Assembly: GCA_964602665.1 (NCBI GenBank)
Contig: CAZRRH010000002.1
Span: 62,171-126,170, forward strand
Direction of reading: 5' to 3'
Source of the DNA: an uncultured Candidatus Saccharibacteria bacterium
Lineage (GTDB): Bacteria > Patescibacteriota > Dojkabacteria > SC72 > WJKH01
DNA length: 64,000 nt
The stretch's first letter is position 1. Every line of letters begins with the position of its first letter. The translations under genes and the position numbers were made by a program. This document shows positions 6,227 to 52,386 of the stretch, one piece after another. Below the pieces are notes generated by a model. It was not told where the DNA came from. It was given only the letters and a program-made list of their open reading frames with translations, and did not search any database.

Positions 6227-6273
6227 GTAGGATTTTACACGGGATTCTTAATTAAGAGATGGCTTCTGTAATA

Positions 6274-11057: not shown

Positions 11058-13487
11058 ATGCCAGAACAAATAAATATAATGGATTACTTCTCGCAAAGAG
11101 CAAGTAATTCGCTACAAAAATCAGCAGAAATCGCAGTAAATGCCGGAAGTAATAAAATCGATACTGAGCATTTGCTTGCAGGAGTTCTTTCTGAAGATGA
11201 GGTCGTTAAAAGAGTCATAAAAGAGCTCAAGCTTGATATAGAACTTTTACAAAAGCAGCTGTCTGAATATATTGGTGAGGACGAGGATAGGGAAATCTCG
11301 TATGAACAAACACCGACGCTATCTCCTAGAGTAAAACAAGTTTTGCAACAATCTTTTATGGAATCTCGCAACTTAGGTCATAACTATATTGGAGGTGAAC
11401 ATATACTTTTGGGACTAATATCTGAAGGAGAAGGATTGGCTTCACAACTTTTTGTTAAATATGGTGTTGATTATAATCAAGCACGGCAAGCTGTTGTTAA
11501 AGTCGTCGGAGAGGGTGATGAAAAGGGTGAGAAAATAACCGAAAAATCAGAAACGCCAAATTTAGACAAATACTCTCGTGACCTAACACAATTGGCGTAT
11601 GATGGCAAAATTGATCCGATAATAGGTAGAGCTGATGAGATAACTCGGGTTATACAAATACTATCGCGTCGTAAGAAAAACAATCCTGTGTTAATTGGAG
11701 AACCTGGAGTTGGTAAAACAGCTATTGCAGAAGGGTTGGCTTATAGGATATCAAAAAATAATGTCCCAGATATCCTAAGAGATAAAAGAGTAAAAGAGCT
11801 TGATGTCGCGTTATTAGTCGCAGGTGCTAAATTTAGAGGTGAATTTGAAGAACGCGCAAAGAAGGTTATAAAAGAGCTACAGTCCACAGGTGGACAGATA
11901 ATTCTTTTTATAGATGAGTTACACACAATTGTTGGATCGGGTGCATCAGAAGGACAAATGGATCTTTCTAATATGTTAAAACCTGCTCTTGCTCGTGGAG
12001 AGCTCAAAGTAATTGGCGCAACAACTTTAAACGAATACAAGAAATATATAGAGAAAGATTCTGCTTTGGAGCGACGATTTCAGCCTGTACTTGTTAATGA
12101 GCCAACAGTTGATCAGACAATAGATATTCTCAAAGGACTTCGGGATAAATATGAAGCTCATCATAAGGTAAAAATAACTGACGAGGCAATTGTTAGTGCC
12201 TCAATTATGTCTGATAGATACATAAAAGATAGATTTCTTCCAGATAAGGCAATTGATTTGATAGATGAGTCTGCAAGCAAGGTTCGTATTGAGTCTTCAC
12301 TTGTTCCCGATGAGATCGCAACTTTACAAGACGAGATTGAGAAGCTTGAGAAAGAGAGAGAAGCTTACAGCAGGGCGGGTGAGCATGAGAAAGGCGCTCA
12401 ATTAAAAGTGCAAATCGAGAAATTAAAAAGTCAATTACAACCGCTTAACGACCAGTGGAGCAAGAAAAAAGGGACGGGTACTCCAACAGTAACAGCAGAT
12501 TCAATTGCGGATTTAATATCATTACAAACAGGGATACCAGTTAGCCAGCTAAAATCAGAGGATAAAGAGAGACTTTTGCACTTAGAGGAAGAATTACATA
12601 AAAAAGTTGTTGGTCAGGATGAAGCAGTTAAGGCCGTGTCTGAGGCTGTACGCAGAGCAAGAGTTGGCCTTAAAGATCCTAATAGACCAATAGGCTCATT
12701 TTTGTTTATGGGGCCAACAGGAGTAGGCAAAACATTGTTAGCTAAAACGCTTGCTTGGCAAATATTTGGTGATGAAGAAGCAATGATTAGGCTTGACATG
12801 AGCGAATATATGGAGAAATTTGCAGTAAGCAGAATGGTTGGGTCTCCTCCTGGTTATGTTGGATACGAGGAAGGAGGTCAGCTTACAGAAGCAGTACGAA
12901 GACAACCATATAGTGTTATTTTGCTAGATGAGATAGAGAAAGCTCACAGTGATGTTTTTAATATTTTGCTTCAAATTTTGGACGACGGGCGTCTTACTGA
13001 TGCTAAGGGGAGAACTGTTGATTTTAGAAATACAATTATAATCGCAACTAGTAATATAGGTTCTGATTTGATTATGGACTCCCTAAAAGGAGGCAAAGAT
13101 CCTGATTGGGATAGGCTCAAAGAAAAGATGATTGACAGATTAAAAAGTCATTTCCGACCAGAATTTTTGAATAGACTTGACGATGTTGTTATCTTTAGAA
13201 AGTTAGAAAAAGCTCAGATAAGAGAAGTCGCTAAAATTTTAATTGATGAAGTGGTTAGAATGCTTAAGGCACAAGGTTTTGAGCTAATTGTTACAGATGC
13301 TGTTCTTGATCATTTGGCTGATATTGGATACGATCCTGAATTTGGTGCAAGGCCAATGAGAAGAGTAATACAAGAGAGTATTGAAAATAAATTAGCTGAT
13401 GGATTGCTTAAGGGAGATTTTAAGACGGGACAGAAGATTACTGTGGATTTTAAAGAGGGGAAGGTTCTTTTAAATTCTAAATTTTAA
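11058..13487 (+). CDS. clpC: ATP-dependent Clp protease ATP-binding subunit ClpC (Clp_N plus two AAA+ modules)
   Basis: The Clp_N repeat is [19 protein letters not shown]. Walker A motifs are [15 protein letters not shown] and [15 protein letters not shown]. Sensor/arginine-finger regions are present. At 809 aa the middle domain is ClpC-length. The last codons and stop are supplied by a repeat element. Confidence 0.85.
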
Positions 13488-13544
13488 ATTCTAGATTTTG
13501 AATTCTAGATTTTGAATTCTAGATTTTGAATTCTAGATTTTGAA
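13475..13544. repeat. tandem 14-bp A/T-rich repeat: one degenerate copy plus four perfect copies of TTCTAGATTTTGAA
   Basis: Units lie at 13489-13502, 13503-13516, 13517-13530 and 13531-13544. A degenerate copy, TTCTAAATTTTAAA, at 13475-13488 overlaps the clpC stop codon at 13485-13487. Confidence 0.85.
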
Positions 13545-26970: not shown

Positions 26971-27007
26971 GAGAAGAAATCCCGTTTTTATGGTAAAATA
27001 AGCTCAT

Positions 27008-27919
27008 ATGAATACATCCGTCGATAAAAGCGTTGCGATTCTCATATTGGCATATAATGGCATTGATAGGCTTAAACTTTGCCTTGAGAATCTAAAATGG
27101 GTGATAGATCGACCTAATACAAAAATAGTCCTTGTAGACAATGGCTCTATAGACCCTATTGCTCCACTTGTAAAAAGCAAATATCCTTGGATTTCTTTCA
27201 TTAAGAACAGTGAGAATTTAGGTTTTGCGATAGGCCAAAATAGCGCATATGAATTTATTAAGAATTCCGGTAAAAAATATAAATATATACTTGCATTAAA
27301 TCCTGATACTTTACTAAATGAAGATGTATTAGATAAGATGATTGAACAAATCGAAAAGGATGAGAATATTGGTTTAATAGGACCTAAAATAATAAACGAT
27401 GACGGACAACTTGAGAAGAGTATACATATAAAGCCAACAGCTTTTACATTCTTTTATAAATTAATAGGTTTGGATTTACAATATTTAATAAATTATCGTA
27501 AATATAAAGCCAAAAGGGCCGTAAGAGTTTTTAGCGTTTCAGGGGCTTGCATGCTAATAAAGACGCAGGTTATAGAAAAAGTTGGCTACTTTGATACTGA
27601 TTTCTTTTTCTATTATGAGGATGTAGATTTATGCAAGCGCATAAATGATGCAGGATATTTTGTTTATTACTTACCCAGTGTTGTTATAAAGCATGCCAGA
27701 GGTCGATCTGTAAGTACTCAAAGTGATAAAAACTGGAGTAAAGAGCAGACATATATATCAAGTTGGATATATTTTAAGAAAAACAGTAGCTTATTTGAGA
27801 AATGTTTATTAAAATATGGTAGAATGTTTGAAATGAATTTGCGCATTTTGATAAACTTCGAGCGAGAATGGGCAAAAAAAATGCTTTTATATTTTAAAGA
27901 TGAAAAAATTTCTAGCTAA
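27008..27919 (+). CDS. family 2 glycosyltransferase
   Basis: GT2 N-terminus VAILILAYNG...VDNGSID, DxD region and GACMLIKTQ. Confidence 0.7.
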   Translation: MNTSVDKSVAILILAYNGIDRLKLCLENLKWVIDRPNTKIVLVDNGSIDPIAPLVKSKYPWISFIKNSENLGFAIGQNSAYEFIKNSGKKYKYILALNPDTLLNEDVLDKMIEQIEKDENIGLIGPKIINDDGQLEKSIHIKPTAFTFFYKLIGLDLQYLINYRKYKAKRAVRVFSVSGACMLIKTQVIEKVGYFDTDFFFYYEDVDLCKRINDAGYFVYYLPSVVIKHARGRSVSTQSDKNWSKEQTYISSWIYFKKNSSLFEKCLLKYGRMFEMNLRILINFEREWAKKMLLYFKDEKISS

Positions 27920-28625
27920 AAAAATATTTGCTGTTATTATTTTTCTTCTGTTAACTCAGAACACATATGCTACAGATGGCTTGATGCTTTTAGAAAAGGA
28001 TGCACAAACCGTCTCAGTTGGACAAGAATTTTCTGTTGATGTAAAAATCTTCTCTGATGAAGAAGAGCTAATACTAGGTCGAGCAGTACTAACATTTGAT
28101 CCCGACTATTTGCAAATTACAAGGATATTAAGAAATGAAGACATTTTCTGCAATTATGATGATGACAGGCAAAGTGCAGATAATGAGAATGGTGTGATAG
28201 TTATCGAAGGCTATTGCCAAAGTGGAGAAGATGAGCTTTATAAGACAGCTACAGACCCGGATGTGTTTGCAAGGATATATTTTAGACCAATCATCGCTGG
28301 GAGTACAGATATTGAATGGGAACATAGTGGTCAAAATGTTGATTTTAAATCTGTGTTAATGGCTGAGGGTAGTCCTCCTCAAAATATATTAAAATTTGCT
28401 CCATCAAAGCTGATAATTAATATCCAATCTGTAAACAACAAGACAAAGACACCACAGACTAATATTTTTGGAGTAGACAACGTCTTAATAGGTATTCTTC
28501 TAATAGTAATCGGGATAGCTTCATTTGCTGTTCTATCTATGATTATAACCCTTATAAGATATCGAGGCGTTAGAGCGTATAATACAATTATTATATCAGA
28601 CGATGAAGATAGCAATCGTCCATGA
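27900..28625 (+). CDS. cohesin-like domain surface protein with a C-terminal TM anchor
   Basis: A signal peptide is followed by GQEFSVDVKIFSDEEELILGRAVLTFDPDYLQI, a cohesin-like beta-sandwich pattern. A C-terminal TM helix is present. Confidence 0.4.
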   Translation: MKKFLAKKIFAVIIFLLLTQNTYATDGLMLLEKDAQTVSVGQEFSVDVKIFSDEEELILGRAVLTFDPDYLQITRILRNEDIFCNYDDDRQSADNENGVIVIEGYCQSGEDELYKTATDPDVFARIYFRPIIAGSTDIEWEHSGQNVDFKSVLMAEGSPPQNILKFAPSKLIINIQSVNNKTKTPQTNIFGVDNVLIGILLIVIGIASFAVLSMIITLIRYRGVRAYNTIIISDDEDSNRP

Positions 28626-29697
28626 TTTCGCATACAAAATGGGCGGAGCTGAGCGATTAGTTGATACTCTCCTAAGTATGTATCCGCAAGCAGACCTTTT
28701 TATGCTTTTTGGTGACAAATCAAAATTGTCCAAGAATTTTAGTAAAAGAGATATTAAATACTCATTTTTGCAAAAGATACCTTTTATCAGATATTTTTAT
28801 AGGTGGACATTTCCTTTGTGGCCAGGGGCTATCGAGAGTTTTAATTTCGAGGGATATGATTTAGTTATATCTCACAGCACCGTCGCTGCAAAGGGTGTAA
28901 TTACTGATATAAACAGCTATCATTTTGCATATATTTCATCTTTCATGCGGTATGCTTGGGATTTGCGACATAGATATTTCGATAAAAAGCCCAGAGTCCT
29001 AAGATTTTTCATAAATTTCTGGCTAAGTTATCTAAGGGCGTGGGATGTATCTGTTAATAATAGAGTAAATAGCTTTGTGGCATGCTCAAAATTTGTTGCC
29101 AAAAGGATGCAGAAATATTACAAAATTGATAATGTGCCTGTTATATTTCCTCCAGTTGACGTAAAGAGTTGTTTGCCTCATAAAAGCATTAAAGAGCAGT
29201 ATTTTCTATCAATTGCACCGTTTGAACCTAATAAAAATGGCAATTTAGCAATAGAATGTGCAAAAAAGCACGGTTTTAATTTAAAAATTATTGGCACAGG
29301 TTCAGGATTAAAAAAGATTAAAAAAAGTGCAAAAAAATATAGAAACATAGAAATATTAGGTTGGGTAGATGAAAAGCAGAAGCTTGATTTATTAGCTGGA
29401 GCAAAAGGGCTTCTTTTTTGTGGTATTGAGGATTTTGGAATAGCTGCAGTTGAGGCTATTGGGAGTGGTACGCCGGTTATAGCTCTAAAAGCAGGTGGAG
29501 CATTAGATTATATTGTAGAAGGAGAGACAGGTGTGTTTTTTGAGAATGAAAATGCTGATAATTTATGGGAAGCAATAACAAAATCTAACCAGATTAAATG
29601 GAATCATGAAAAGATGCGCGAATTTGCTTATGACAATTTTGATAAGCACATTTTTGTACAAAAGATCGCTAGCGAGTTGAAAAAAAAACTAAAATAG
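28603..29697 (+). CDS. family 4 (GT-B) glycosyltransferase
   Basis: The N-terminus is KIAIVHDFAYKMGGAER. The C-terminus is EDFGIAAVEAIGSGTPVIALKAGGALDYIVEGETGVFF. Confidence 0.7.
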   Translation: MKIAIVHDFAYKMGGAERLVDTLLSMYPQADLFMLFGDKSKLSKNFSKRDIKYSFLQKIPFIRYFYRWTFPLWPGAIESFNFEGYDLVISHSTVAAKGVITDINSYHFAYISSFMRYAWDLRHRYFDKKPRVLRFFINFWLSYLRAWDVSVNNRVNSFVACSKFVAKRMQKYYKIDNVPVIFPPVDVKSCLPHKSIKEQYFLSIAPFEPNKNGNLAIECAKKHGFNLKIIGTGSGLKKIKKSAKKYRNIEILGWVDEKQKLDLLAGAKGLLFCGIEDFGIAAVEAIGSGTPVIALKAGGALDYIVEGETGVFFENENADNLWEAITKSNQIKWNHEKMREFAYDNFDKHIFVQKIASELKKKLK

Positions 29698-29714
29698 TGT
29701 ATTATTGAAGCTAA

Positions 29715-29787
29715 GCCGAGATAGCTCAGTTGGTAGAGCACGCGACTGAAAATCGTGGGGTCACCAGTTCAAGCCTGGTTCTCGGCA
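29715..29787 (+). tRNA. tRNA-Phe(GAA)
   Basis: Acceptor GCCGAGA/TCTCGGC, anticodon stem CGCGA/TCGTG with loop CTGAAAA, T-arm CCAGTTCAAGCCTGG. Confidence 0.85.
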
Positions 29788-29819
29788 TATGTTCGAGTAC
29801 AAATTTGATCTATAAATGT

Positions 29820-29893
29820 GCGGGAGTAGTTCAGTTGGCTAGAACGTTACTTTGCCAAAGTGAAGGTCGCGGGTTCGAGCCCCGTCTCCCGCT
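29820..29893 (+). tRNA. tRNA-Gly(GCC)
   Basis: Acceptor GCGGGAG/CTCCCGC, anticodon loop TTGCCAA, T-arm GCGGGTTCGAGCCCCGT. Confidence 0.85.
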
Positions 29894-30000
29894 TGTTTTA
29901 AATAATGAAGAGCGGGGCGAGACTTGTCTGTCTATTACAAAGTAATGGGCAGAAGCAGGGTTAGGCCACTATGAAGCGAAGCGAAATAGTAGCGTAAAGT

Positions 30001-30022
30001 CCCGTCTCCCGCTTGTTTTAAA
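30001..30022 (+). repeat. 22-bp perfect direct repeat of the tRNA-Gly 3' end plus trailer (CCCGTCTCCCGCTTGTTTTAAA); first copy at 29881-29902
   Basis: An exact duplicate lies 98 bp downstream of the tRNA, immediately before the 30027 ORF. This is an att-like scar, but no integrase is present. Confidence 0.75.
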
Positions 30023-30026
30023 AACC

Positions 30027-30659
30027 ATGAAAAAGCTTTTACCGTATATAATAATACTGACATCTTTTGTCCTCTCGTTATTTTCTTTGAGCAATTATCC
30101 TTATAAATATGCTGTACATTGGGGAATAACCGGAGAAGCTGATGGATTCGCAACAAATCGATTTGGGCTGTTTTTCATTCCAATAATGCTTCTTGTATTG
30201 CAGGTATTTCTTGTCCTTGTGCCCAAAATTGACCCAAAAAAGAAAAACATCGAAAAGTTTAGTGGCGCATATGAACGATTTATACTGTCTTTTCATCTTT
30301 TGTTCCTTTATTTACAGATAATTATGTTTGTGTGGAATGTAATTTCTGAATTTAACTTTACACAGGTTACTGGCTTAGGTATGGGTCTGTTTTTTATCAG
30401 CATAAGCGATCTTATAAAACATGCAAAATCAAATTACACAATAGGCATTCGCACTCCGTGGACATTGGTAAATGAGCAGATCTGGGATAAAACTCATCAA
30501 CTAGGTGCTAAACTAATTAAGTATATCTCAATAATTGCTATTATAACATTGCCTTTTGCTAAATATTCATTCTTTATTCTTATCGGAGGGGTTTTATTGT
30601 CATTTCTTTTTCTGACATTTTATTCATTCTATTTATTTAAAAAGGATGTTAAGAAATAG
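30027..30659 (+). CDS. polytopic membrane protein (SdpI/DUF1648-like)
   Basis: 210 aa. The N-terminus HWGITGEADGFATNRFGLFFIPIMLL...PKIDPKKKN resembles the SdpI/YfhL family. Low confidence. Confidence 0.35.
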   Translation: MKKLLPYIIILTSFVLSLFSLSNYPYKYAVHWGITGEADGFATNRFGLFFIPIMLLVLQVFLVLVPKIDPKKKNIEKFSGAYERFILSFHLLFLYLQIIMFVWNVISEFNFTQVTGLGMGLFFISISDLIKHAKSNYTIGIRTPWTLVNEQIWDKTHQLGAKLIKYISIIAIITLPFAKYSFFILIGGVLLSFLFLTFYSFYLFKKDVKK

Positions 30660-31143
30660 TTTCATGAATAAGCAAGAAATAAGAGATAAGGTAAAAAAAA
30701 TCAAAATAAGCGATAAAGATAGTAGATCAGCACAGATTAGAGCAGAAATAGTCAAAATAATCGCAAATAGAAATTCTCGAAAAGTATTTATTTATCAAGA
30801 ACTCTCTGATGAAATCGCAGTTTACGAAATTGTTAAATTACTGTCTAATATTTCATTTTATATTCCGATTTTTACATCTAAATGGCAAATAATTTCCAAT
30901 GATAGTAAAGAGCTTTTTGATAATGTAAATGATGCAGGATTTGATAAAAACGATATTTGTATTGTTCCCGGGCGAGCTTTTACTATTAGTGGTTGTAGGG
31001 TAGGCAGGGGTGGGGGATACTATGACAGATACCTTGTCGACTCTATTTGTTATAAAATCGGTGTTTGTTTTAGGGAGCAGATTTTTGAAGAATTGCCTTT
31101 TGAGAAACACGACATTACAATGGATATTGTTTTGGCTGCTTAA
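30646..31143 (+). CDS. 5-formyltetrahydrofolate cyclo-ligase (MTHFS)
   Basis: C-terminal family motif VPGRAFTISGCRVGRGGGYYDRYL. Confidence 0.6.
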   Translation: MLRNSFMNKQEIRDKVKKIKISDKDSRSAQIRAEIVKIIANRNSRKVFIYQELSDEIAVYEIVKLLSNISFYIPIFTSKWQIISNDSKELFDNVNDAGFDKNDICIVPGRAFTISGCRVGRGGGYYDRYLVDSICYKIGVCFREQIFEELPFEKHDITMDIVLAA

Positions 31144-32010
31144 TTATACCGATAAATCTTTTAAGATATATTTGAACATGCGGACAATTGGATCCATACC
31201 AAAAGATCCTGCACCAATACCCATTCCAGGAGAATTGTTTATCTCGATTATGAAGAACTCTCCATTTTCATCTATAGCAATATCAAGCCCAACAAAATTT
31301 ATTGGGATGGCGTTAAATACCCCTTGAGAAAAAGCCTCTAATTTCTCCAGTATATTTGCATCTTGCACAAGAACACCTTTTGCGTTCTCCCAGTGCAAAG
31401 GACTTAAGTTGCCGACAAAAATTGCATCGTCAATGTTCTTTTCATAAGCAAACATAAGCTTTCTTTTATAAGCTATTACTCTGTATTCCTTTTTGATTTT
31501 AATGTATTCTTGTGCGATAGCAATATAATCAAAAGCACCAAATTTGCGTGATCTACTAAATATCCTTCTTAATGCTGAAAGAATATCTGCTCTGTTATTG
31601 CATAAGTATACATTATGTCCTTGCGAGCCAAAATTTCTTTTTAAAACGATTGGATATTTAAAGTTTTTTTCGATATCGTTGGCAATGGTTTTTCTTGTTG
31701 GGAACTCCAATAGTGGTAAGTATTTTTCGTTTAAATTAGGTGCGAGATAGCTTTTCCACTTAGGTACTTTTATATGTGGTGCTAAAACAGTGTATGAAAG
31801 GTCTTTGTCTTTGCATATTTTTACAATATCTTCTCTGTTAAATGCTTTGTAATGATGTGTAAAGAAAAGATTTGTTTTATTGGGAAGGGTTACTTTGACA
31901 AGAATTTGATGCTTATGAATAATCTCATACTGAATATTTAGCTCTTTGCAAGCCTTTATTAGAGCTAGTTGCGATATCTTTAATCCGGTTCTTGCATCGT
32001 TTTGTTCCAT
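31144..32010 (-). CDS. ATP-grasp enzyme (RimK/alpha-L-glutamate-ligase-like)
   Basis: The ATP-grasp fold shows in IVLKRNFGSQGHNVYL, EYRVIAYK and FVGLDIAIDENGEFFIIEINNSPGMGI. Co-directional with and adjacent to fhs and glyA. Confidence 0.55.
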   Translation of the reverse strand: MEQNDARTGLKISQLALIKACKELNIQYEIIHKHQILVKVTLPNKTNLFFTHHYKAFNREDIVKICKDKDLSYTVLAPHIKVPKWKSYLAPNLNEKYLPLLEFPTRKTIANDIEKNFKYPIVLKRNFGSQGHNVYLCNNRADILSALRRIFSRSRKFGAFDYIAIAQEYIKIKKEYRVIAYKRKLMFAYEKNIDDAIFVGNLSPLHWENAKGVLVQDANILEKLEAFSQGVFNAIPINFVGLDIAIDENGEFFIIEINNSPGMGIGAGSFGMDPIVRMFKYILKDLSV

Positions 32011-32102
32011 TATATAATTATACTATAAAACAGCTGATTTTACAAGAGTTCCACTGCATAAGGGTCACCAATAATTCATAATAATAAAGGCAAATTAATT
32101 TT

Positions 32103-33806
32103 CTACGACAACCCGACAATATTACCATCTTCATCTATGTCTATAATTTGCGCATTTGGATGAGAGGATAACCCGGGCATAAGGCGCATTTTGCCAAGCA
32201 TTGCGACTATAAAGCCGGCTCCTGCAGAGACTTTTACTTCTCTTACAGTTATATCAAAGTTTGTTGGTCTGCCGACTTTAGTTGGATCATCAGATAAAGA
32301 AAGATGAGTTTTGGCCATGCAGATTGGAAGTTTATCCATACCATTTTGCTCTATTAATTTGATCGATTTATCAGCTTCTTCGGTATATTTTACGTTATTT
32401 GCACCGTAAATATTCTGCGCAATTTTGCTTATTTTATCTTTAATGCCTTCTTTTTCATCATACAGAAGTTTAAAATTCTTATCACCTTTTTCTATTACTT
32501 GTACGACAGCGGTTGCTAGATCAATTCCGCCATCAGCTCCTTTGGCAAAAACTTCGCTTATTACGCTTTGATCAGCCCCAAGTTCACTTGCGCGATTCTT
32601 TACATACTCGACCTCTTTATCTGTGTCTGTTGGAAATCTGTTTATCGCAACAATTACAGGTACACCAAATAACTTAGCGTTTTCAATCTGTTTAGCGAGA
32701 TTTCCGATTCCTTGCTCGATACTCTCAATATCTTCTTGTATAAGTTTTTTGGGCAATTTTTTGCCTGGTTTAATATCGAATTTACCGCTGTGGTACTTAA
32801 GTGCTCTTACTGTTGCGACTATTATTACAGCATCAGGCGTTAGTCCGCTATATCTGCATTTTATATTCATAAATTTCTCCATACCAATATCAGCACCAAA
32901 ACCAGCTTCTGTGATAAGATAATCTGCCATCTTAATTCCGATAAGATCTGCTATTATCGAGCTGTTACCGTGTGCGATATTTGCAAATGGTCCGGCATGT
33001 ATAATTGCTGGTGTATTATCTAGTGTTTGCACGAGATTTGGTTTTATCGCGTCTTTCATTATTACCGCCACACTTCCCGCAACTTTTAGATCTCCTATTG
33101 TGACAGGTTTACCGTCTGTATTGTATGCAACTACAGTTCTTGCAACTCGAGCTTTTAGATCTTGCAAATCATTAGCAAGTGCAAGTATTGCCATTATCTC
33201 TGAAGCTACGGTTATGTCAAACCTTGTCTCTCGTTCTATACCAAACTCTTTTGGGTCTTTATTATCACCAATGCGGACTTTGCGAAGTGCCCTGTCGCTT
33301 ACATCAAGGACTCTTGGCCATATAATTTTATCAGGATCTATTTTGAGTTTATTTCCTTTAAGAAGATGGTTGTCTATTATTGCTGCAACAAGGTTATGTG
33401 ATGCAGTGATTGCGTGTATATCGCCAGTGAAATTTAGATTAAACTCCTCCATTGGAATAACTTGTGCGTATCCACCACCTGCTGCACCACCTTTTATGCC
33501 AAATGTCGGGCCCATTGATGGCTGTCTTATTGCTATCACGCTGTTTTTACCAATTTTGTGCATAGCCTGTCCAAGTCCAACTGTGGTTGTTGTTTTGCCC
33601 TCACCAAGTGGAGTGGGCGTTATTGCTGACACAACAATGTATTTGGCGTTTGGGCGATTTTGCAATCTCTTGCGTACTGATAAATCGATTTTGGCTATAT
33701 ATTTGCCGTACTGATCGTACTCATCAGGATTAAGACCTAGCTTTTTTGCTATGTCTGTTATTGGGAGTTTTTTTGCTTCCCGTGCAATTTCCAAATCAGT
33801 TTTCAT
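32103..33806 (-). CDS. fhs: formate--tetrahydrofolate ligase
   Basis: FTHFS signature PTPLGEGKTTTTVGL with full-length similarity. I place the start at the internal Met (MKTDLEIAREAK), which removes the overlap with glyA that the ORF-track start at 33851 creates. Confidence 0.85.
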   Translation of the reverse strand: MKTDLEIAREAKKLPITDIAKKLGLNPDEYDQYGKYIAKIDLSVRKRLQNRPNAKYIVVSAITPTPLGEGKTTTTVGLGQAMHKIGKNSVIAIRQPSMGPTFGIKGGAAGGGYAQVIPMEEFNLNFTGDIHAITASHNLVAAIIDNHLLKGNKLKIDPDKIIWPRVLDVSDRALRKVRIGDNKDPKEFGIERETRFDITVASEIMAILALANDLQDLKARVARTVVAYNTDGKPVTIGDLKVAGSVAVIMKDAIKPNLVQTLDNTPAIIHAGPFANIAHGNSSIIADLIGIKMADYLITEAGFGADIGMEKFMNIKCRYSGLTPDAVIIVATVRALKYHSGKFDIKPGKKLPKKLIQEDIESIEQGIGNLAKQIENAKLFGVPVIVAINRFPTDTDKEVEYVKNRASELGADQSVISEVFAKGADGGIDLATAVVQVIEKGDKNFKLLYDEKEGIKDKISKIAQNIYGANNVKYTEEADKSIKLIEQNGMDKLPICMAKTHLSLSDDPTKVGRPTNFDITVREVKVSAGAGFIVAMLGKMRLMPGLSSHPNAQIIDIDEDGNIVGLS

Positions 33807-33825: not shown

Positions 33826-35070
33826 TTAATTATTAATTCCCGGTATTTCAAATTTGCTCATATAGGAGGCTACTTTAGCTCTTAATTTGCTCAAATAAGA
33901 CTCATCTTTTCTATTTTTTAGTGCTTTGTCAATTGAGTCAGCGACAAACTCCATGTCTTTCTCAACTAAACCTCTTGTGGTTATTGCTGGAGTACCTATT
34001 CGGACGCCTGATGGATCCCAAGGCTTGCGAGGATCGTTTGGTATACCGTTTTTATTTAGTGTAATATTTGCAAGCTCCAAAGTATCGCTAGCGATTTTGC
34101 CTGTGAGACCATTTTGTGTTGTCACATCGACAAGCATAAGGTGGTTATCTGTTCCGCCTGATATAATTCGATAGCCCTTGTCCATAAGTAACTTTGATAA
34201 ATAAGCTGCATTAGCAATAATCTGCTTAGCATATGCTTTGAAATCATCCTGGCTTGCTTCTTCTAACGCAACGGCAATTCCTGCAGTAGTGTGATTATGT
34301 GGTCCACCTTGCAATCCTGGGAATACAGCTCCGTCAATCTTCTCGGCAAACTCTTTTTTGCACATAATCATCGCGCCTCTTGGTCCTCTTAGCGTCTTAT
34401 GTGTAGTAGTAGTAACGACATCAGCGTATGGGAATGGATTTGGATGGACTCCTCCTGCGATTAATCCTGCTATGTGAGCTATATCTGCAACGAGAATTGC
34501 TCCGACTTCATCGGCTATCTCTTTAAATTTCGCAAAATCTATTATGCGTGGATAAGCTGACCCTCCTGCCCATATAAGTTTAGGCTGGTGCTTTTTTGCG
34601 ATATCTCTAACTTCATCGTAATCTATATAGCCGTTTTTGTCTACACCGTAAGATGCAGAATTAAAATATTTACCAGTAATGCTAACTTTAAAACCGTGTG
34701 TGAGATGGCCACCAGCAGATAATGCCATCCCAAGTGTGCGATCGCCGGCGTCAAGAAATGCAAAATGCACAGCGAGATTTGCGGGAGAACCTGAATATGG
34801 TTGGACATTAGCATGCTCTGCATTAAATAACTTGCAAGCACGCTCTTTTGCAAGATCTTCTATCTCGTCGATAAACTCATTGCCTGCATAATATCTTTTA
34901 CTTGAGTATCCTTCTGAGTATTTGTTTGTTAAAATAGAACCCATTGCCTCAAGTACTGCTGATGAGACATAGTTTTCGGAAGCGATTAACTCGATTCCTT
35001 CTTTTTGGCGTTTAGCCTCGCTTTTTATAGCGTTGTAGACCTTTTGGTCTTGGTTTTGTAAAGTGGACAT
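33826..35070 (-). CDS. glyA: serine hydroxymethyltransferase
   Basis: Motifs NKYSEGYSSKRYYAGNEFID, HLTHG and the PLP-Lys region VVTTTTHKTLRGPRG. Confidence 0.9.
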   Translation of the reverse strand: MSTLQNQDQKVYNAIKSEAKRQKEGIELIASENYVSSAVLEAMGSILTNKYSEGYSSKRYYAGNEFIDEIEDLAKERACKLFNAEHANVQPYSGSPANLAVHFAFLDAGDRTLGMALSAGGHLTHGFKVSITGKYFNSASYGVDKNGYIDYDEVRDIAKKHQPKLIWAGGSAYPRIIDFAKFKEIADEVGAILVADIAHIAGLIAGGVHPNPFPYADVVTTTTHKTLRGPRGAMIMCKKEFAEKIDGAVFPGLQGGPHNHTTAGIAVALEEASQDDFKAYAKQIIANAAYLSKLLMDKGYRIISGGTDNHLMLVDVTTQNGLTGKIASDTLELANITLNKNGIPNDPRKPWDPSGVRIGTPAITTRGLVEKDMEFVADSIDKALKNRKDESYLSKLRAKVASYMSKFEIPGINN

Positions 35071-35140
35071 AAATATAAATTTTAAATTTTAAATTTTAAA
35101 TGCTAAATTTTAGATTTTAAATTTTAGATTTCAGATTTTA
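35071..35140. repeat. A/T-rich tandem repeat array (AAATTTTAAA / TTTAGATTTTAAA units) between the four-helix-bundle gene stop and the glyA start
   Basis: It contains TAAATTTTAGATTTTAAATTTTAGATTTCAGATTTTAAA. This belongs to the same motif family as the 13475-13544 array. Confidence 0.7.
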
Positions 35141-35142: not shown

Positions 35143-35502
35143 TTAAATAAGTGGTTTTTTCTTTGAACAGCTGATAACAATTTTTGTTAGTATTTTAATT
35201 ATTTCTTCAATATCTATAAGTAAATTAGAGCATTCTGCATCAACTAAGTTACTTTCTTTAAGCAAATTTAGCCAGTATCTTGTCTCTCTTGCTTCTTTTG
35301 ATGCGATTGACATCTTATGTGTAAAGTCCTTTTTACTTTGTCCTGCAAGAGCCTCTTCAATATTTGCGCCAATGCTCGTACCGCTTCTAAGTAATTGCTT
35401 AGATAGAATATATTCTTTTTCTGCTATTAAAATTTTATAAAATTTAATTATGTTTAAGCTAAAAACAAACGCCTTCTTTTGAATTATATTTTCTGTTTTC
35501 AA
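35143..35502 (-). CDS. four-helix-bundle protein of the '23S rRNA intervening-sequence protein' family
   Basis: The family pattern is KEYILSKQLLRSGTSIGANIEEALAGQSKKDFTHKMSIASKEARETRYWLNLL. It uses a TTG start. Confidence 0.6.
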   Translation of the reverse strand: MKTENIIQKKAFVFSLNIIKFYKILIAEKEYILSKQLLRSGTSIGANIEEALAGQSKKDFTHKMSIASKEARETRYWLNLLKESNLVDAECSNLLIDIEEIIKILTKIVISCSKKKPLI

Positions 35503-35589
35503 TACAAATTTTAAACTCTAAATTTAGAAGTTTCATTTTATTTTACCTCTCTAATGATTAAAAAATCCTGAATTATAAATGATAATACT

Positions 35590-35680
35590 CAATTCAAAAT
35601 TCAAAATTTAGAATTTAAAATTACAAATTGTAAATCCTTTGCCTTTAATTCAAAATTTAAACTTTAGAATTTAAAATTGT
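35590..35680. repeat. A/T-rich repeat array (TTCAAAATT / TTTAGAATTTAAAATT units) overlapping the 3' end of the ABC ATPase gene
   Basis: The sequence is ATTCAAAATTCAAAATTTAGAATTTAAAATT...TTCAAAATTTAAACTTTAGAATTTAAAATTG. This is the reverse-complement orientation of the 13489 unit. The last six codons and the stop of the 35657..36463 gene lie inside it. Confidence 0.7.
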
Positions 35681-43566: not shown

Positions 43567-44658
43567 ATGATAAAACAGAAAATGGCTGTTTGTATTACTG
43601 CATACGAGCCGGGCGGACAATCGGTAGTAGTGGAAGAAACGACTAAAAGATTTGCTAAATTTTATGATATTGATTTATACTGCGTTGGTGCGTCAAAACC
43701 TAAGCCTGCGTGGATAGACAATTTATACCTAGTTAAGCCGTGGGTACATAAGTATATTCCAATAATCAATAAGCAGTTTATAAATGATATAAAATCTCGT
43801 AATTATGCGCTTATACATTGTCACGATTCGCTTCCCTTCTTAAACGCATTCTACAAAAACGGTATAAAATATATGGTAACTTGTCTTGGTAACACAGATT
43901 GGCAGTATAGAGATGGATTAGTATCAAAAATAGATGGTATTGCGAGTTTACTATTTTATGGTAGAGGATACAAAGAAGCTGTTAAAGTTATATCTATAAG
44001 CAAATACTTGCAAGAATGGCTTAAAAAGACTTATAAAGTTGAATCACAAGTAATAGATCTTGGTGCCAATACAGACAGATTTCACCCTACGCAAAAAGCA
44101 AATTGGAGAGACAAAAGATTTATTTACTTTGGACAAATATCTTATCGCAAAGGCATTTTAGATCTTATTGAAATGTCTAGATTAATAAAAGATAAACATC
44201 CAGATTTTGTGCTTGAAATATATGGATTTGGCAAAGAAGAGTTTATGGAGAAAGTCCGAAATTTAATAAAAAAGCACAAACTAGAAAAAAATGTAAATTT
44301 AATCGGCTTTATAAAAGATGAGGAGCAAAATAGTAAGTATAACAGTGCTTTAGGTGTTATATCAGCTTCTTATTGGGAAGGATTTGGGTTGCCAATAATC
44401 GAGGCGTATAGATGTAACAGGCCAATCTTTGTTAGAAACAGAACCGCCATGAAAGATCTTGTAATTGATGAGAGATTTCGATTTGATGATGTTGATCAGC
44501 TTGTTGGGAAACTAGATTATTTTCTTTCAAATGAGAAAGAGTTTAGAGATATTGATTGGACAACTAAGCTTGATAGTGAAAAGTTCAGTTGGGATTTTAA
44601 CGCAAAAAAATACTTAAATTTATTTAAAAAAAAATATGATTATAGGGCAGAATTTTAA
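43567..44658 (+). CDS. GT4 glycosyltransferase; module A gene 3, with a 999-bp core identical to 57149..58240
   Basis: Motifs GQISYRKGILDLIE and EGFGLPIIEA. Bases 43603-44601 are identical to 57182-58180. Confidence 0.7.
   Translation: MIKQKMAVCITAYEPGGQSVVVEETTKRFAKFYDIDLYCVGASKPKPAWIDNLYLVKPWVHKYIPIINKQFINDIKSRNYALIHCHDSLPFLNAFYKNGIKYMVTCLGNTDWQYRDGLVSKIDGIASLLFYGRGYKEAVKVISISKYLQEWLKKTYKVESQVIDLGANTDRFHPTQKANWRDKRFIYFGQISYRKGILDLIEMSRLIKDKHPDFVLEIYGFGKEEFMEKVRNLIKKHKLEKNVNLIGFIKDEEQNSKYNSALGVISASYWEGFGLPIIEAYRCNRPIFVRNRTAMKDLVIDERFRFDDVDQLVGKLDYFLSNEKEFRDIDWTTKLDSEKFSWDFNAKKYLNLFKKKYDYRAEF
43603..44601 (+). repeat. 999-bp exact dispersed repeat, copy A (copy B is 57182-58180)
   Basis: The two tracts were compared directly. 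Identity starts and stops abruptly inside the two GT4 ORFs. Confidence 0.8.
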
Positions 44659-45389: not shown

Positions 45390-47654
45390 ATGAAAAGATC
45401 TCTTTATATTATATATACGGTTTTTTTTATAATATTTTTTATCTTGCCATTGTTTTATCTTTTTTGGAAAAATAAGGGCTCTTCTATTCTTGGGCTTGAT
45501 TTGATAAATTATTATAATCCTGAAAAGAATCTCAAAGAAATTTTTTATATGTGGATTGAGAACGGCGGGAATGGATTTGGGTTTTATTTACCTATAAGAA
45601 TATTTGAAATTTTGAATGTCTCGATAAGCGTTTTTTTAAAGAAGTTGGGGGTTTCATTTAATGCTTGGTATAAAATATATTATTTTTTATCATTGATAAT
45701 TGGATATATTGGAATTTTTAAGCTTCTTAGTATGTTTTATAGAACAAAGATCATGTCTATTAAATTATTACTCGTTTCATATATATATATATTAAATCCA
45801 TTTACTTTAATAATAATTTATAACCCCGTTCCTTACTTTATAAATTTTATGGCTTTAACTCCATGGATTGCCTTTTTTTATATTCGAATTATTCGTGATC
45901 CTAACAGTAAAAGCTTATTATTGTTTTTAGCACTTAGTATTTTCTTAAATGTGGCATTTGCAAATTTAGCCTTCTTGGCTACATTAGTAATTCTCTTATT
46001 GATAATTAGCGTATTAGAAATAAAGAATATTTATAAAAATAGGAAAATACTTACTATTTATTTAATTATAATTTTTCTATTCAACTCATATTGGACTTTG
46101 AACTTAGGTCATTTTTATATTTTTAATAGAACAGACTTATTTGAAAGTGAGATAAACATTATTAAAACGGTCTTTGATATTGAGTCGATAAGTAAGTATG
46201 CTAAACTATCTAATATTTATCGTGGAATCGGAGGTTGGGATTTTTTTAATTCTCCTTTTGGTAAGCCATCGATAAGCTTCTCCTCGTTTTATAAGCAAGT
46301 TGTGCCAAGTATTTTGTTGTTTTTAAATCTGGTGCCTTTTCTAATGATTATTATTGACAAGAAGCATCAAGGTAGAAAAAGCATAATCATGGGTTCGTAC
46401 TTGCTAATAATATTTATGATATCTTATGGATTAGATAGTCTATGGTTTAAATCTGGAATTGTTAAGTCTGGTTTATATATGTTTAGAGATACTTTTAGTA
46501 AATTTGGAATGCTAATTCCATTTTTAATGACTATTTCTTGGTGTGAAACGATTAAGAGTAGCGGAAAAACAGCAATTTTTTTTCTTAGCCTTGCCATGCT
46601 TATAAATTCATATCCTCATTTAACAGGACAATTTATTAATAACGACTATTACTCTAATTATCCAAATGAATATAAGATTATTGGCAAAATAATCGATGAA
46701 GATTTTTCGTCAAATAGAGCTCTAAAGGTTCCAATCCCGACTTTTATTGCCATAGGAGAGAAAAATGATACATTGGCATGGGATTATTGGGGACCAGCTT
46801 TTTTATATGAGTTCACTGAAAAAAGGACGATAGAGATTCCTTCAAGAGCTGTTAATCGTTACTCAGATAAATACATGGAGAATTTCGTTGAAAATATAAA
46901 TGAAGAATATTTTTGTGAAAACTTAGATGAGATAAACATAAAACATATTCTTTTCAATAATAATTATTATGACTATTTATCTCCGAATGATAATGAAAAG
47001 ATTAAAGATAAATATTTTAAGATAGTAAATTCTTGTCAAAAGCTGGAACTTGTTTATGAAAGTAATGGTTATTACCTTTTCATAAACAAGGATGATTTAA
47101 GAGCAATTATTGATGGGAAAAACTTGTCTTTCCATAAAAATAATCCTACAAAATATAGTTTAAAAGTAGATAAAATAAAAGATAAGTTAAAGATAAACTT
47201 TTATGATTCATTTGATTATAATTGGCAATTGTATTTAAAAAGTAATAAAGAGTTTGCATCTGAAATGTTTTTAAATGCAGAAAAAAAACATATTGGCAAT
47301 TCAATAGAATATATTTCTAAAGATAAATTTGCTTTTAAGCTTACTGATCTCTCATACCTTTGGCGTAAGCCAATATTTGAAGATACGCATGAACTAGTAT
47401 ATGACTATGCAAACGGGTGGACAATAGATCCTGAGTACATAAAAGCAAACTATCCACCAGAATATTACCACGAGAACCCAGATGGCTCAATAGACATACA
47501 GTTGACCCTGTACTTTAAACCCCAGTCATACTTTTATCTTGGCATAATAATCTCCGTCACGACATTTACAGGATGTATAATATACCTAATAATAGACACA
47601 ATTAAAACTAAACGGCGCAAAAAAGATACAAATGAACCTCAAAACAAAAAGTAA
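45390..47654 (+). CDS. YfhO-like GT-C fold membrane glycosyltransferase (N-terminal polytopic domain, C-terminal extracytoplasmic domain, terminal TM)
   Basis: 754 aa with about 12 N-terminal TM helices, a roughly 300-aa soluble C-terminal domain and a final TM helix. It has the same architecture and C-terminal motif (GWxIDP...LTLYFxPQ) as its neighbour at 47632. Confidence 0.45.
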   Translation: MKRSLYIIYTVFFIIFFILPLFYLFWKNKGSSILGLDLINYYNPEKNLKEIFYMWIENGGNGFGFYLPIRIFEILNVSISVFLKKLGVSFNAWYKIYYFLSLIIGYIGIFKLLSMFYRTKIMSIKLLLVSYIYILNPFTLIIIYNPVPYFINFMALTPWIAFFYIRIIRDPNSKSLLLFLALSIFLNVAFANLAFLATLVILLLIISVLEIKNIYKNRKILTIYLIIIFLFNSYWTLNLGHFYIFNRTDLFESEINIIKTVFDIESISKYAKLSNIYRGIGGWDFFNSPFGKPSISFSSFYKQVVPSILLFLNLVPFLMIIIDKKHQGRKSIIMGSYLLIIFMISYGLDSLWFKSGIVKSGLYMFRDTFSKFGMLIPFLMTISWCETIKSSGKTAIFFLSLAMLINSYPHLTGQFINNDYYSNYPNEYKIIGKIIDEDFSSNRALKVPIPTFIAIGEKNDTLAWDYWGPAFLYEFTEKRTIEIPSRAVNRYSDKYMENFVENINEEYFCENLDEINIKHILFNNNYYDYLSPNDNEKIKDKYFKIVNSCQKLELVYESNGYYLFINKDDLRAIIDGKNLSFHKNNPTKYSLKVDKIKDKLKINFYDSFDYNWQLYLKSNKEFASEMFLNAEKKHIGNSIEYISKDKFAFKLTDLSYLWRKPIFEDTHELVYDYANGWTIDPEYIKANYPPEYYHENPDGSIDIQLTLYFKPQSYFYLGIIISVTTFTGCIIYLIIDTIKTKRRKKDTNEPQNKK

Positions 47655-49902
47655 AAAAACATATACCACAATAATTCTTATCCTACTAATCATCCTCTCC
47701 ATCCTCAACCTTCTCCCACTTAACCACATATATTCTCAATATGACATCGCACAGCAAATTGTTCCACGCCAGATCTTAGAGCAAATATACCTGTGGTCAC
47801 AAAGAGATCTAGGTGCAATGGCAACATCTTACTCCTCACTCCAATACTATCTTCCTCTCACAATCATCCCTACCACGCTCCACACAGCATACTATTACCT
47901 CATATTCCTCATCCCAACATACCTTGGCATAACATACTACCTATCCCAAAATAAAACGCAAAAATTAAAAAACAAAACTTACCTGCTCTCTCTAGTCTAT
48001 ACCATCTCCTTCTTCCCAGTATACTCATTCTTCTATCAGGGAGGACATTTCCCATTTCATAACCTATACTCACTATTTCCACCAATATTCATCCTATACT
48101 ACTTATACATAAGCAAAACAGAAAAAGAGGAGGCAAAAAGCTATCAATTTAAAATTCAAAACTTAAAATTTAAAATTGATAATAATTTATTAATCCTCCT
48201 TGCCATTCTTTTTCTAACTAACATAGTCAACTCCAATATCCCGTATTTTTTCTCGCTTAACCTAGTTTTAATACTAATTGCAGTAGTTAATTACATCATC
48301 CTAAAATCACGCAAAGCGGTTCGTACAATACCTTACTTGTTCAAAATAGCTAAATTTTACATACTATATTTCTTAATTACCGTTTGGAGCACAGTGCCAC
48401 AAATAATACAGCATTTAAACACATATTCATCGTTTATGAGACAGCAAGAGCACTTTCCCATAGACCAATGGCTGTTTTGGCAGTCAATGAATTTCACAGA
48501 GAGCTTGACGATGTTTTGGGAGACTCGCAGATACCTGGATCAGATACCTCTAACTGTATATGGCGCACTGGCCATTACATTTCTAGCCTTTGTCGTTTTA
48601 ATCGCAACAAAAAAGAGAACAGCGATACTTACGATACTTTGGGCAACATATATATTTGTCATATTTTTAGCCAATAAAGGGGCATACTGGCTTCCGCAGC
48701 GTTGGACACTTGCCATTTTCAAGCTTCCATTTTTGGCACCAATAAGATCATATGATAAGACGCTAATTTTTATGCCATTTCTTTTGTTTGCGATAATATC
48801 TTACTATATCCTGACTGATTACGAGAAAAACAAGAGATTAAAGCAAGTCATGCTTGCAGTACTATGCATCTCACAGATAATCGCCTCATATCCACTATGG
48901 AGTGGCCAGTTAGTCACAAAGTACTCACAACAGCATGCTAAAGGTGAGGATTACACAACTGCAGAGTATTCGCCCGTTGTACAAATCCCACAAGATTATT
49001 ATGATGTAGCACAAATATTAAATGCCAAGTATGATAATGGTAGAAATCAATTCCGTGTTATGCGCTTGCCATATTCTGTAGTAAACTCGGCGGGTTGGGC
49101 TAACTACCCTAAGTGGAAAGTCAACAGCGCTGATCCTACAATACAGCTATTTGATATGCCTTCCGTTCAGCCACAGTCCTTTCCTGATGAAGCTTTTGGT
49201 TTGTGGAATTGGGGATTGGAGTGGAATGAGGATGATAAATCGCAGAGCATGTGGCTTCTTAATTTTATGACATTTACTAATAGTCGATATATTATTTATC
49301 ATAAAGATGTTAAGCCGGAGTTTATTGCTGATACGATTGACAAGATAAACTACTACAAAGAGCAGGGGTTGATAACGCAGATTTATAGTGGTGAGTATAT
49401 TGACGCTTATGAATTATCTCGGATTTACATTGGCGATCATTTTTATATCGCTGATAAAATCGAGTATTTTAGTGGCGACTACGATAATTATGCAAGCCGG
49501 CTTTACAATTTGAATGCTAACTCGGTTTTTATACATAGCGATAGAATTACACAAGAACAGTTAGTTTCGCTATATAATATTAAAAAATCAGATGCACAAA
49601 TAAGCTATGAGTATATTAGCCCGATAAAATATAAAATAACCGTAAAAAATGCGACAGAGCCGTTCGTTTTGGTTATGCGAGAGGGTTATCACAAAGGCTG
49701 GAGGCTTACTGGTGCAAGCTGTGATCATATATTTGCAAATGGTTTTGCTAATGGATGGATAATTGATCCTGGTGATAGCGATGAGCTTGACTTAACTCTC
49801 TATTTTATACCGCAAACATTATACTGGGTTACTTTTGCTATATCCTCTTTGACTTTTTTATGGGTTTTATATATGATAATCATGATTAAAAAAAAGAAAT
49901 GA
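47632..49902 (+). CDS. YfhO-like GT-C fold membrane glycosyltransferase, tandem paralog
   Basis: 756 aa with the same topology as 45390..47654. Its 5' third has unusual G-depleted codons, and an in-frame repeat-family copy lies at 48156-48187. Confidence 0.45.
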   Translation: MNLKTKSKKTYTTIILILLIILSILNLLPLNHIYSQYDIAQQIVPRQILEQIYLWSQRDLGAMATSYSSLQYYLPLTIIPTTLHTAYYYLIFLIPTYLGITYYLSQNKTQKLKNKTYLLSLVYTISFFPVYSFFYQGGHFPFHNLYSLFPPIFILYYLYISKTEKEEAKSYQFKIQNLKFKIDNNLLILLAILFLTNIVNSNIPYFFSLNLVLILIAVVNYIILKSRKAVRTIPYLFKIAKFYILYFLITVWSTVPQIIQHLNTYSSFMRQQEHFPIDQWLFWQSMNFTESLTMFWETRRYLDQIPLTVYGALAITFLAFVVLIATKKRTAILTILWATYIFVIFLANKGAYWLPQRWTLAIFKLPFLAPIRSYDKTLIFMPFLLFAIISYYILTDYEKNKRLKQVMLAVLCISQIIASYPLWSGQLVTKYSQQHAKGEDYTTAEYSPVVQIPQDYYDVAQILNAKYDNGRNQFRVMRLPYSVVNSAGWANYPKWKVNSADPTIQLFDMPSVQPQSFPDEAFGLWNWGLEWNEDDKSQSMWLLNFMTFTNSRYIIYHKDVKPEFIADTIDKINYYKEQGLITQIYSGEYIDAYELSRIYIGDHFYIADKIEYFSGDYDNYASRLYNLNANSVFIHSDRITQEQLVSLYNIKKSDAQISYEYISPIKYKITVKNATEPFVLVMREGYHKGWRLTGASCDHIFANGFANGWIIDPGDSDELDLTLYFIPQTLYWVTFAISSLTFLWVLYMIIMIKKKK
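48156..48187. repeat. in-frame copy of the A/T-rich repeat family inside the 47632 CDS (AATTTAAAATTCAAAACTTAAAATTTAAAATTG)
   Basis: It encodes YQFKIQNLKFKIDNNL within the ORF. The motif matches the arrays at 35590-35680. Confidence 0.5.
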
Positions 49903-52337: not shown

Positions 52338-52386
52338 ATTTTAATTATATCATAAGGCTGGCTGTATGTCAAGTGATTGCATTACT

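Follow-up and report, generated by a model that had tools for sequence, protein, structure and literature searches.

A repeated tRNA-Gly 3' end in a Dojkabacteria contig bounds a structured, strain-variable unit with an RtT-like layout

Introduction

What does a short direct repeat of a tRNA 3' end record when its second copy stands between the tRNA gene and a protein gene? The question is raised by a 64,000-nt stretch of DNA from an uncultured bacterium of the Dojkabacteria lineage, within the candidate phyla radiation (CPR) (contig CAZRRH010000002.1; the whole stretch is called the window here, and positions are counted from its first letter), in which the 3' end of a tRNA-Gly gene recurs just ahead of a gene for an SdpI-like membrane protein. 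The original prediction, made from the sequence, took this repeat for an attachment-site-like scar of an integrated element. The analysis reported here finds that the repeat bounds a structured 120-nt unit, module X, which is present or absent as a whole among strains of the species and has a counterpart in a tandem array behind the corresponding tRNA-Gly gene of a related genome. Its layout parallels that of the RtT repeats of Escherichia coli. We favour, with moderate confidence, a reading of X as an RtT-like, tRNA-Gly-derived trailer module that would share a transcript with the tRNAs and would come and go through recombination or slippage between repeated tRNA ends.

The Repeat and Its Setting

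The repeated sequence is a 22-mer, CCCGTCTCCCGCTTGTTTTAAA, with forward-strand copies at 29881-29902 and 30001-30022; 98 bp (29903-30000) lie between them, the distance from start to start is 120, and the match grows to 25 nt if one mismatch (AGC/AGT) is allowed. A third copy was not found in the 64-kb window with up to three mismatches allowed, and none of 100 dinucleotide-preserving shuffles held a match. The features that frame the repeat are as follows.

29715..29787, forward strand: tRNA-Phe(GAA), found by ARAGORN and Rfam (69.4 bits)
29820..29893, forward strand: tRNA-Gly(GCC), CCA not encoded, found by ARAGORN and Rfam (65 bits)
29881..29902, forward strand: repeat copy 1, comprising the 3' strand of the T stem, the 3' strand of the acceptor stem and the discriminator (13 nt), then 9 nt of trailer
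30001..30022, forward strand: repeat copy 2, comprising the tRNA-like end of module X (30001-30013) and the native trailer TGTTTTAAA toward sdpI
30027..30659, forward strand: gene for an SdpI/DUF1648 membrane protein, sdpI (PF13630, PF07853)

Because tRNA-Gly is placed at 29820-29893, copy 1 is the last 13 nt of that gene plus a 9-nt trailer. The tRNA has the acceptor stem GCGGGAG/CTCCCGC and the discriminator T. Copy 2 stops 4 nt short of the sdpI ATG, and in one group of strains (type B, below) its trailer reads TGTCTTGAA. The window has a GC content of 0.33, and the homologues of the neighbouring proteins carry the names Dojkabacteria, Pacebacteria and Portnoybacteria. No integrase, recombinase or transposase Pfam family was matched by any of the 55 open reading frames (ORFs) of at least 90 aa in the window. 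The descriptive part of the original prediction thus stands: its exact 22-bp repeat 98 bp downstream is confirmed by the coordinates and the shuffles, its division into 13 nt of tRNA-Gly end and 9 nt of trailer agrees with the ARAGORN and Rfam placement of the tRNA, the second copy does lie just before an SdpI-like gene, and no integrase is present among the ORFs surveyed.

Presence and Absence of the Unit Within the Species

Members of the SdpI 90% cluster supplied 16 further contigs of the same species, which makes 17 with the window. The 120-bp unit is present in 14 of them (window included) and absent from three. In the three empty contigs (L015, L016 and L147, from two assemblers and three samples) tRNA-Gly is followed directly by TGTTTTAAAAACCATG, and what is missing is exactly 120 bp, that is, the 98-bp interior and one repeat copy, which leaves a single-copy, attB-like site. 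With 14 filled and three cleanly empty contigs, the unit is therefore a real insertion/deletion polymorphism. The idea that an element excises and re-enters here is borne out insofar as the unit is gained or lost at the repeat boundaries, but no attP form was found in viral contigs, phages or plasmids. Likewise, the comparison of the locus among relatives that had been proposed as a check yielded the three empty single-copy sites, but no larger occupied variant.

The filled contigs fall into two types that differ within copy 2, which reads AAAGT followed by CCCG...TGTTTTAAAAACC in type A (the window and L001) and AAAGC followed by CCCG...TGTCTTGAAAACC in type B (12 contigs). Positions 29894-29999, covering the first trailer and the interior, are identical across all filled contigs, and differences from the window start again at 30000, 30017 and 30020. 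Around the unit, identity to the window is 92-99.5% for the family 4 glycosyltransferase (GT4) gene upstream, 91% for sdpI and, in L009, 75% for the 32-nt spacer between tRNA-Phe and tRNA-Gly. Given 9% divergence, at most one difference in 107 nt has a probability of about 5e-4 by our own calculation, so the unit is either constrained or recently spread.

Two further observations concern the same strains. When window positions 27000-33000 are compared with L009, L010, L011, L015 and L017, identity shifts abruptly between segments; for example, the GT4 gene is 99.5% identical in L009 vs. 91.9% in L010, and the tRNA-Phe/tRNA-Gly spacer 75% vs. 100%. These switches, at or near the tRNA genes, suggest frequent homologous exchange with the tRNA block as a breakpoint. 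A second insertion/deletion lies about 2 kb from the tRNA locus, where type-B strains carry a gene of 213 aa without a Pfam match between the ATP-grasp and formate-tetrahydrofolate ligase (FTHFS) genes (5014-5655 in L009, 4954-5595 in L017); in the window, a short 3'-end stub of it is all that remains, at about 32011-32102.

Anatomy and Predicted Fold of Module X

The 98-nt interior has a GC content of 0.46, vs. 0.33 for the window as a whole. On the forward strand, 29909-30016 is predicted to fold with an energy of -42.2 kcal/mol (z -4.1 vs. shuffled sequences); the opposite strand reaches -35.7 kcal/mol (z -3.8), so that the forward strand is better by 6.5 kcal/mol. In a GC-regressed folding-energy scan of the entire stretch, X ranks third among 2370 scanned segments, both strands included, by GC-corrected energy. 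Its parts are listed below.

29894..30013, forward strand: module X, a 120-nt unit in which a linker is followed by a structured body and then by a final copy of the tRNA-Gly 3' end, up to a discriminator-equivalent T at 30013
29911..29923, forward strand: 5' strand of helix P1, AGCGGGGCGAGAC, predicted to pair with the terminal GTCTCCCGCT as an acceptor-stem-like helix that closes the module
29927..29953, forward strand: P2, a predicted 12-bp hairpin with an AAA triloop and two G.U pairs
29947..30013, forward strand: core conserved between species, a T-arm-like stem (GC..GGGT / GTCCC..GT) in which hairpin P3 replaces the T loop, followed by the tRNA 3' strand

P1 shares its pairs GCGGG/CCCGC with the first 5 bp of the acceptor stem of tRNA-Gly, and the only long-range inverted pairing in the unit uses the tRNA-derived copy itself. 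P2 is flanked by the similar strings GGGGCGAGA and GGGCAGA; it looks like a secondary insertion, since it is absent from the related unit X' described below (a 26-column gap in the alignment). P3 is a longer, imperfect hairpin at about 29955-30005 with the apical motif AAG-Y-GAA-R-CGAA.

Several known types of element were considered for X and set aside. Rfam, applied in E-value mode to 29000-31000 and in gathering mode to the whole window, returned only tRNAs, with no signal recognition particle (SRP) RNA, transfer-messenger RNA (tmRNA), ribozyme, RtT or Y-RNA at X. X is not recognised as a tRNA or tmRNA gene, ARAGORN and the Rfam tRNA clan being silent at 29894-30022, and as a full-length decayed tandem copy of tRNA-Gly it would have a 5' part that is only weakly similar (shuffle p 0.027). 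Hammerhead-like and SRP-like motifs, suspected by eye, found no Rfam support. A transposon of the miniature inverted-repeat transposable element (MITE) type was rejected as well: the two ends of the interior, TAATGAAG... and ...GCGTAAAGT, do not form inverted repeats, the duplication spans 22 bp, and the 64-kb window contains no further copy of X.

A Homologous Array in a Related Genome

The closest homologue of the GT4 protein outside the species (58% identity) is encoded on a contig of an NCBI metagenome-assembled genome, GCA_015657875.1, referred to here as L148. Gene order in L148 matches the window on both sides, but without sdpI. The GT4 gene is followed by tRNA-Phe and then by a tRNA-Gly(GCC) with the acceptor stem GCGAGAG/CTCTCGC, and behind the latter, at 7385-7705, at least four units are arrayed in tandem. 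All of them end in GTCTCTCGCT, the 3' strand of the acceptor stem of that genome's own tRNA-Gly. In order, these are a unit with a 66-N gap (NPID01000164.1), a unit Y (73 nt), a unit X' (93 nt, ending GAAGCCCCGTCTCTCGCT) and a second Y (73 nt); the count is a lower bound because the assembly gap falls inside the array. The two complete Y units differ at three places, namely a loop, a bulge and an A-U pair that becomes G.U. Downstream of the array there is unique DNA and then a convergent gene. No integrase or transposase occurs among the genes called in the 13 kb of L148, and Rfam in E-value mode found only tRNAs at 7100-7800. The spacer between tRNA-Phe and tRNA-Gly in L148 contains, within 7235-7310, a perfect 18-bp hairpin (CCGCCATTAGGGCACTTG ... 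CAAGTGCCCTAATGGCGG) that is absent from the 32-nt spacer of the window and adds a further structured insert to this tRNA operon.

When the interior of X was compared with the 13-kb L148 locus, X' without its tRNA-derived end was the best hit (blastn E 0.001, nhmmer E 0.12), and X' in turn had X as its best hit in the 64-kb window (E 0.49), so that the hits are reciprocal. The core of X aligns with L148 7567-7632 at 74% identity over 66 columns, and at 71% outside the tRNA-derived 15 nt. Among the 18 pairs of the shared hairpin, four are changed on both sides, two on one side, and two are mismatched in X; structures slid by 1-3 columns contain no double-sided changes. The basal pairing of X' joins GCGAGA to its own TCTCGC.

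The covariance model derived from X and X' gave scores of 14.5 and 12.1 bits to the Y units and of about 12.9 bits to the T arm and 3' end of tRNA-Gly. Since the model recovers both, the module core may be read as a tRNA-Gly T arm carrying a hairpin in its loop, as the scores suggest. The ends of the modules follow the resident tRNA, being CTCCCGC in the window and CTCTCGC in L148, and every module has a 5' strand that rebuilds the first 4-6 acceptor-stem pairs of the resident tRNA. Among seven distinct tRNA genes (nine gene copies at four loci), such tail repeats were seen for tRNA-Gly only.

Promoter Context and a Proposed Pathway

The tRNA-Phe/tRNA-Gly pair is preceded by a single promoter-like site.

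29677..29705, forward strand: promoter-like site TTGAAA-17-TATTAT upstream of tRNA-Phe (10/12 matches)

An identical TTGAAA-17-TATTAT stands ahead of tRNA-Phe in L148. Within 29706-30026 of the window no promoter-like or terminator-like site was scored, and no intrinsic terminator (a compact GC-rich hairpin with a T run) was found in 29700-30100. In L002, a relative that has no tRNAs at this place, a TGATATAAT box stands directly ahead of the ATG of the homologous sdpI. In the window species, sdpI probably relies on read-through from the tRNA promoter, and the tRNAs, the repeat-bounded segment and sdpI would then form a single transcript.

In the reading that we favour, X is appended to the tRNA-Phe/tRNA-Gly operon. 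Its last 13-16 nt reproduce the 3' end of tRNA-Gly, T loop through discriminator, and an upstream strand is predicted to pair with this copy to give a closing helix resembling the acceptor and T stems, with hairpins as the body. The tRNA-Phe promoter would drive X together with the tRNAs and, in the window species, sdpI. The enzymes that process tRNA 3' and 5' ends could then excise X through its tRNA-like end, so that the sdpI message would begin where it does in strains that lack X. Because all units share tRNA-derived ends, they might be lost or multiplied by slippage or unequal recombination.

Several points weigh against this reading. Transcription and processing of X are deduced from its position, its strand and the lack of a promoter or terminator between it and its neighbours, and the kinship with RtT is anatomical, descent being unsupported. 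By themselves, the statistics for sequence homology are marginal (nhmmer E 0.12 and 0.49), and the covariation comes from two species and two effective sequences, with two of the X' pairs mismatched in X. A single nucleotide polymorphism (SNP) between the strain types alters the predicted basal fold, which makes the register of the basal pairing uncertain, and the basal helices of X and X' stand in different registers. The unit is also dispensable, as three contigs do without it, and its invariance among the remaining strains could equally be compatible with the recent spread of a mobile unit.

Three side observations on promoters may be recorded here. The motif AAAATAGTGTAT(A/T)AT is common to both tRNA operons of the window, at about 5966-5981 before tRNA-Cys and at 29690-29705 before tRNA-Phe. 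In L002 the TGATATAAT box (2965-2985) ends about 6 nt upstream of the sdpI ATG, the gene caller having picked a later ATG, and this position suggests that the sdpI message of L002 is leaderless. X as the carrier of an sdpI promoter was considered and rejected: its -10-like TAAAGT reads TAAAGC in most strains, and no promoter-like site was scored.

Comparison With RtT Repeats and tRNA-Like RNAs

The RtT repeats of E. coli have been known since the late 1970s. In E. coli K-12 the terminal 19 nt of tRNA-Tyr are found again once between tyrT and tyrV, and after tyrV they follow three times at a spacing of 178 bp. The annotated small RNA (sRNA) RttR has its end exactly at the first of the copies behind tyrV, and GGGGAAGGAT, which is complementary to the tRNA-Tyr copy, occurs in every downstream unit. 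The units of both systems lie directly downstream of a tRNA on the same strand, and each terminates in a duplicate of that tRNA's 3' end beginning within the T loop; the duplicate measures 19 nt and includes CCA in E. coli, and measures 16-25 nt and lacks CCA here. Each unit also has an internal stretch complementary to the copied end. Tandem arrangement is found in E. coli, with three whole units after tyrV and one between tyrT and tyrV, and in L148, with at least four units, whereas strains of the window species carry one unit or none. The systems differ in that the tRNA is tRNA-Gly in the CPR rather than tRNA-Tyr in Enterobacteria, the units measure 73-120 nt as against 178 nt, a single array combines two or three module types, no tpr-like ORF is present, and presence/absence polymorphism among strains is documented here. 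The Rfam model RF00391 gave four hits in E. coli as a positive control (133-138 bits) and none at E values up to 10 on window positions 29000-31000 and L148 7100-7800, which hold X, X' and Y; the likeness to RtT is therefore one of anatomy and not of family membership. According to a preprint of 2024, how rtT RNA acts is still unknown (10.1101/2024.07.17.603846).

A second comparison is with tRNA minihelices, the tRNA-like domain of tmRNA, YrlA and mascRNA, with which our modules share an acceptor-like helix stacked on a T-stem-like helix. In our modules the first three acceptor pairs and the discriminator match tRNA-Gly, and by this analogy release of X by tRNA-processing enzymes is plausible. 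In contrast to those RNAs, the canonical T loop is replaced by a hairpin, and ARAGORN and the Rfam tRNA clan miss X. A literature search for tRNA-like non-coding RNAs in the CPR found nothing. The analogy can be carried further: X, X' and Y might be mimics of the 'top half' of tRNA-Gly, closed by its acceptor stem (G1-C72, C2-G71, G3-C70, U73) on a T-stem-like helix, released from the tRNA operon transcript by RNase P and RNase Z, given CCA, and perhaps glycylated or acting as decoys for enzymes that recognise the acceptor end of tRNA-Gly. We consider this proposal quite unlikely.

Alternative Explanations

The main rival holds that X, X' and Y are miniature non-autonomous integrative elements that target the tRNA-Gly 3' end and are mobilised by a recombinase encoded elsewhere. 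Each insertion would regenerate the site, so that arrays would accrete, the folded body would serve as a recombination substrate, and a circular form would have the hypothetical junction ...GTAAAG(T/C)CCCGTCTCCCGCTTGTTTTAAATAATGAAG.... Such elements would account for the exact empty-site allele and for an array in which different module types are interleaved with repeated identical ones around one common core. They would also account for module 3' ends that invariably match the end of the resident tRNA, down to the C/T difference between the species, for a trailer that is invariant on the tRNA side and strain-specific on the sdpI side, with divergence resuming at 30000-30020, and for an X that is 100% identical across diverged strains. 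Integron attC sites and the CTX phage attP at dif are folded single-strand recombination sites and offer a possible parallel, with arrays of short units bounded by a common core and an imperfect hairpin that rebuilds the core duplex; here, in contrast, there is no adjacent integron integrase and no Xer-type site, and the core is a tRNA end.

However, neither the 55 window ORFs nor the gene calls of the 13-kb L148 locus include an integrase or transposase family, and the 64-kb window has no second X. The original prediction had proposed a search for circular or attP-bearing elements, and this came back empty in collections where genomes of this lineage are barely represented. Viral contigs, scanned for exact matches to the att core and to three segments of the interior, gave no attP-like copy, blastn against phages and plasmids found no match to X, and an interior 21-mer found none in Joint Genome Institute (JGI) metagenome contigs, a collection that lacks at least one JGI sample known to carry X (L018). 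A metagenome scan with a structure-anchored pattern returned three chance hairpins, none beside a tRNA, and in a genome scan with the tRNA-Gly 3' half, which is common to many phyla, no short-range partial duplicate or X-like unit appeared among the matches listed, which came from unrelated genomes. The core is separated from its inverted partner by a variable distance (13, 17 and 28 nt), which does not suit a fixed double-stranded core site. The similarity between X and tRNA-Gly also extends upstream of the repeat, into the 5' strand of the T stem and the first bases of the T loop, which a plain attP core does not need. Finally, a 22-bp direct repeat 120 bp apart can delete without a recombinase, which counts against the need for a mobilising enzyme. 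On balance we judge the mobile-element explanation unlikely, but the trailer-module and trans-mobilised readings are not fully exclusive.

It is improbable, in our estimate, that X is a cis-acting element of the operon, serving either as a leader or stabiliser of sdpI or as a termination or processing region of the tRNA operon. X ends 13 nt from the sdpI ATG, sdpI has no promoter-like site of its own, and Rfam classes RtT as cis-regulatory; in older literature, Rho-dependent termination of the tyrT operon was placed inside the RtT repeats. However, no intrinsic-terminator-like site was found, and strains without X keep the same junction between tRNA and sdpI. The array in L148 precedes a convergent gene and neither sdpI nor any other gene downstream on its strand, which argues against a dedicated sdpI leader.

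That X is an inert scar, an attL/attR pair left after internal deletion of a prophage or island with mere filler between, was the interpretation put forward originally, and it is now very improbable. Repetition of a tRNA 3' end is a classic sign of integration, fragments of tRNA genes occur widely as attR sites (PMC9897764), and the term cis-mobilizable elements, or CIMEs, denotes decayed elements in which attL and attR persist (PMC5704250). The locus resembles a CIME in having a direct repeat of the tRNA 3' end around an insert, an empty-site allele and no recombinase inside. In contrast to a CIME, the insert is 98 bp and not kilobases long, holds no decayed genes, is conserved and structured across species, and belongs with arrays of near-identical small units. 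The scar is disfavoured because the interior does not vary within the species, is one of the most strongly folded parts of the window (z -4.1), shows compensatory changes relative to its homologue in L148, where the flanking protein is 58% identical, and corresponds to at least four tandem units in that relative. Finally, a chance repeat or an assembly artefact has a negligible probability, given the empty shuffles, SPAdes, MEGAHIT and Logan assemblies of many samples that all show the repeat structure, and an empty allele with flank haplotypes of its own.

Other Features of the Window

An unannotated tRNA-Leu(CAG)-like gene of 112 nt occupies 3422-3533 on the minus strand. It has a normal acceptor stem and T arm, the anticodon loop UUCAGAA, a D arm identical to that of tRNA-Leu(UAA) at 6142-6227, and a variable arm of about 43 nt that forms a hairpin of about 19 bp, which includes G.U pairs and is capped by a UAA triloop. 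The gene escaped both ARAGORN and the Rfam tRNA model at its gathering score, the sole hit being a weak tRNA-Sec (22.3 bits); with a fold z of -6.2 it is the top folding outlier of the window. AT-rich intergenic stretches of short repeats (e.g., AAATTTTAAATTCTA) lie at 13468-13518, 35069-35109, 35584-35634 and 48146-48186; as inverted repeats they pair mutually, and two of the stretches rank with the strongest folding outliers of the window.

Among the protein genes, two GT4 genes of 363 aa each (43567-44658 and 57149-58240), 13.6 kb apart, share at least 97% identity in their first 300 nt and have near-identical Pfam scores, and the pair looks like a recent duplication within the glycosyltransferase region. 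Three consecutive ORFs at 45390-52049 (754, 756 and 716 aa) have no Pfam match at E values up to 1e-5, as is true of two other ORFs, 42-3407 and 52053-54253. A 23S rRNA intervening-sequence protein (PF05635) is encoded by a solitary gene at 35143-35502 (minus strand), which adjoins the serine hydroxymethyltransferase (SHMT) gene and lies outside any rRNA gene.

Significance

For annotation, the locus advises caution: a duplicated tRNA 3' end near the tRNA gene is not, by itself, evidence of past integration. An RtT counterpart, unrelated in sequence, behind a CPR tRNA-Gly suggests that tail-capped structured units on tRNA operons are recurrent and not an enterobacterial oddity. Conservation across species, together with gain and loss within a population, opens the question of the origin and role of RtT to comparison between lineages. 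If the units are inert hitch-hikers, the finding shrinks to a modest curiosity. If the modules were indeed mimics of the tRNA-Gly top half, they and RtT would together represent a general class of tRNA-end-capped RNAs, evolved independently and carried along by tRNA operons.

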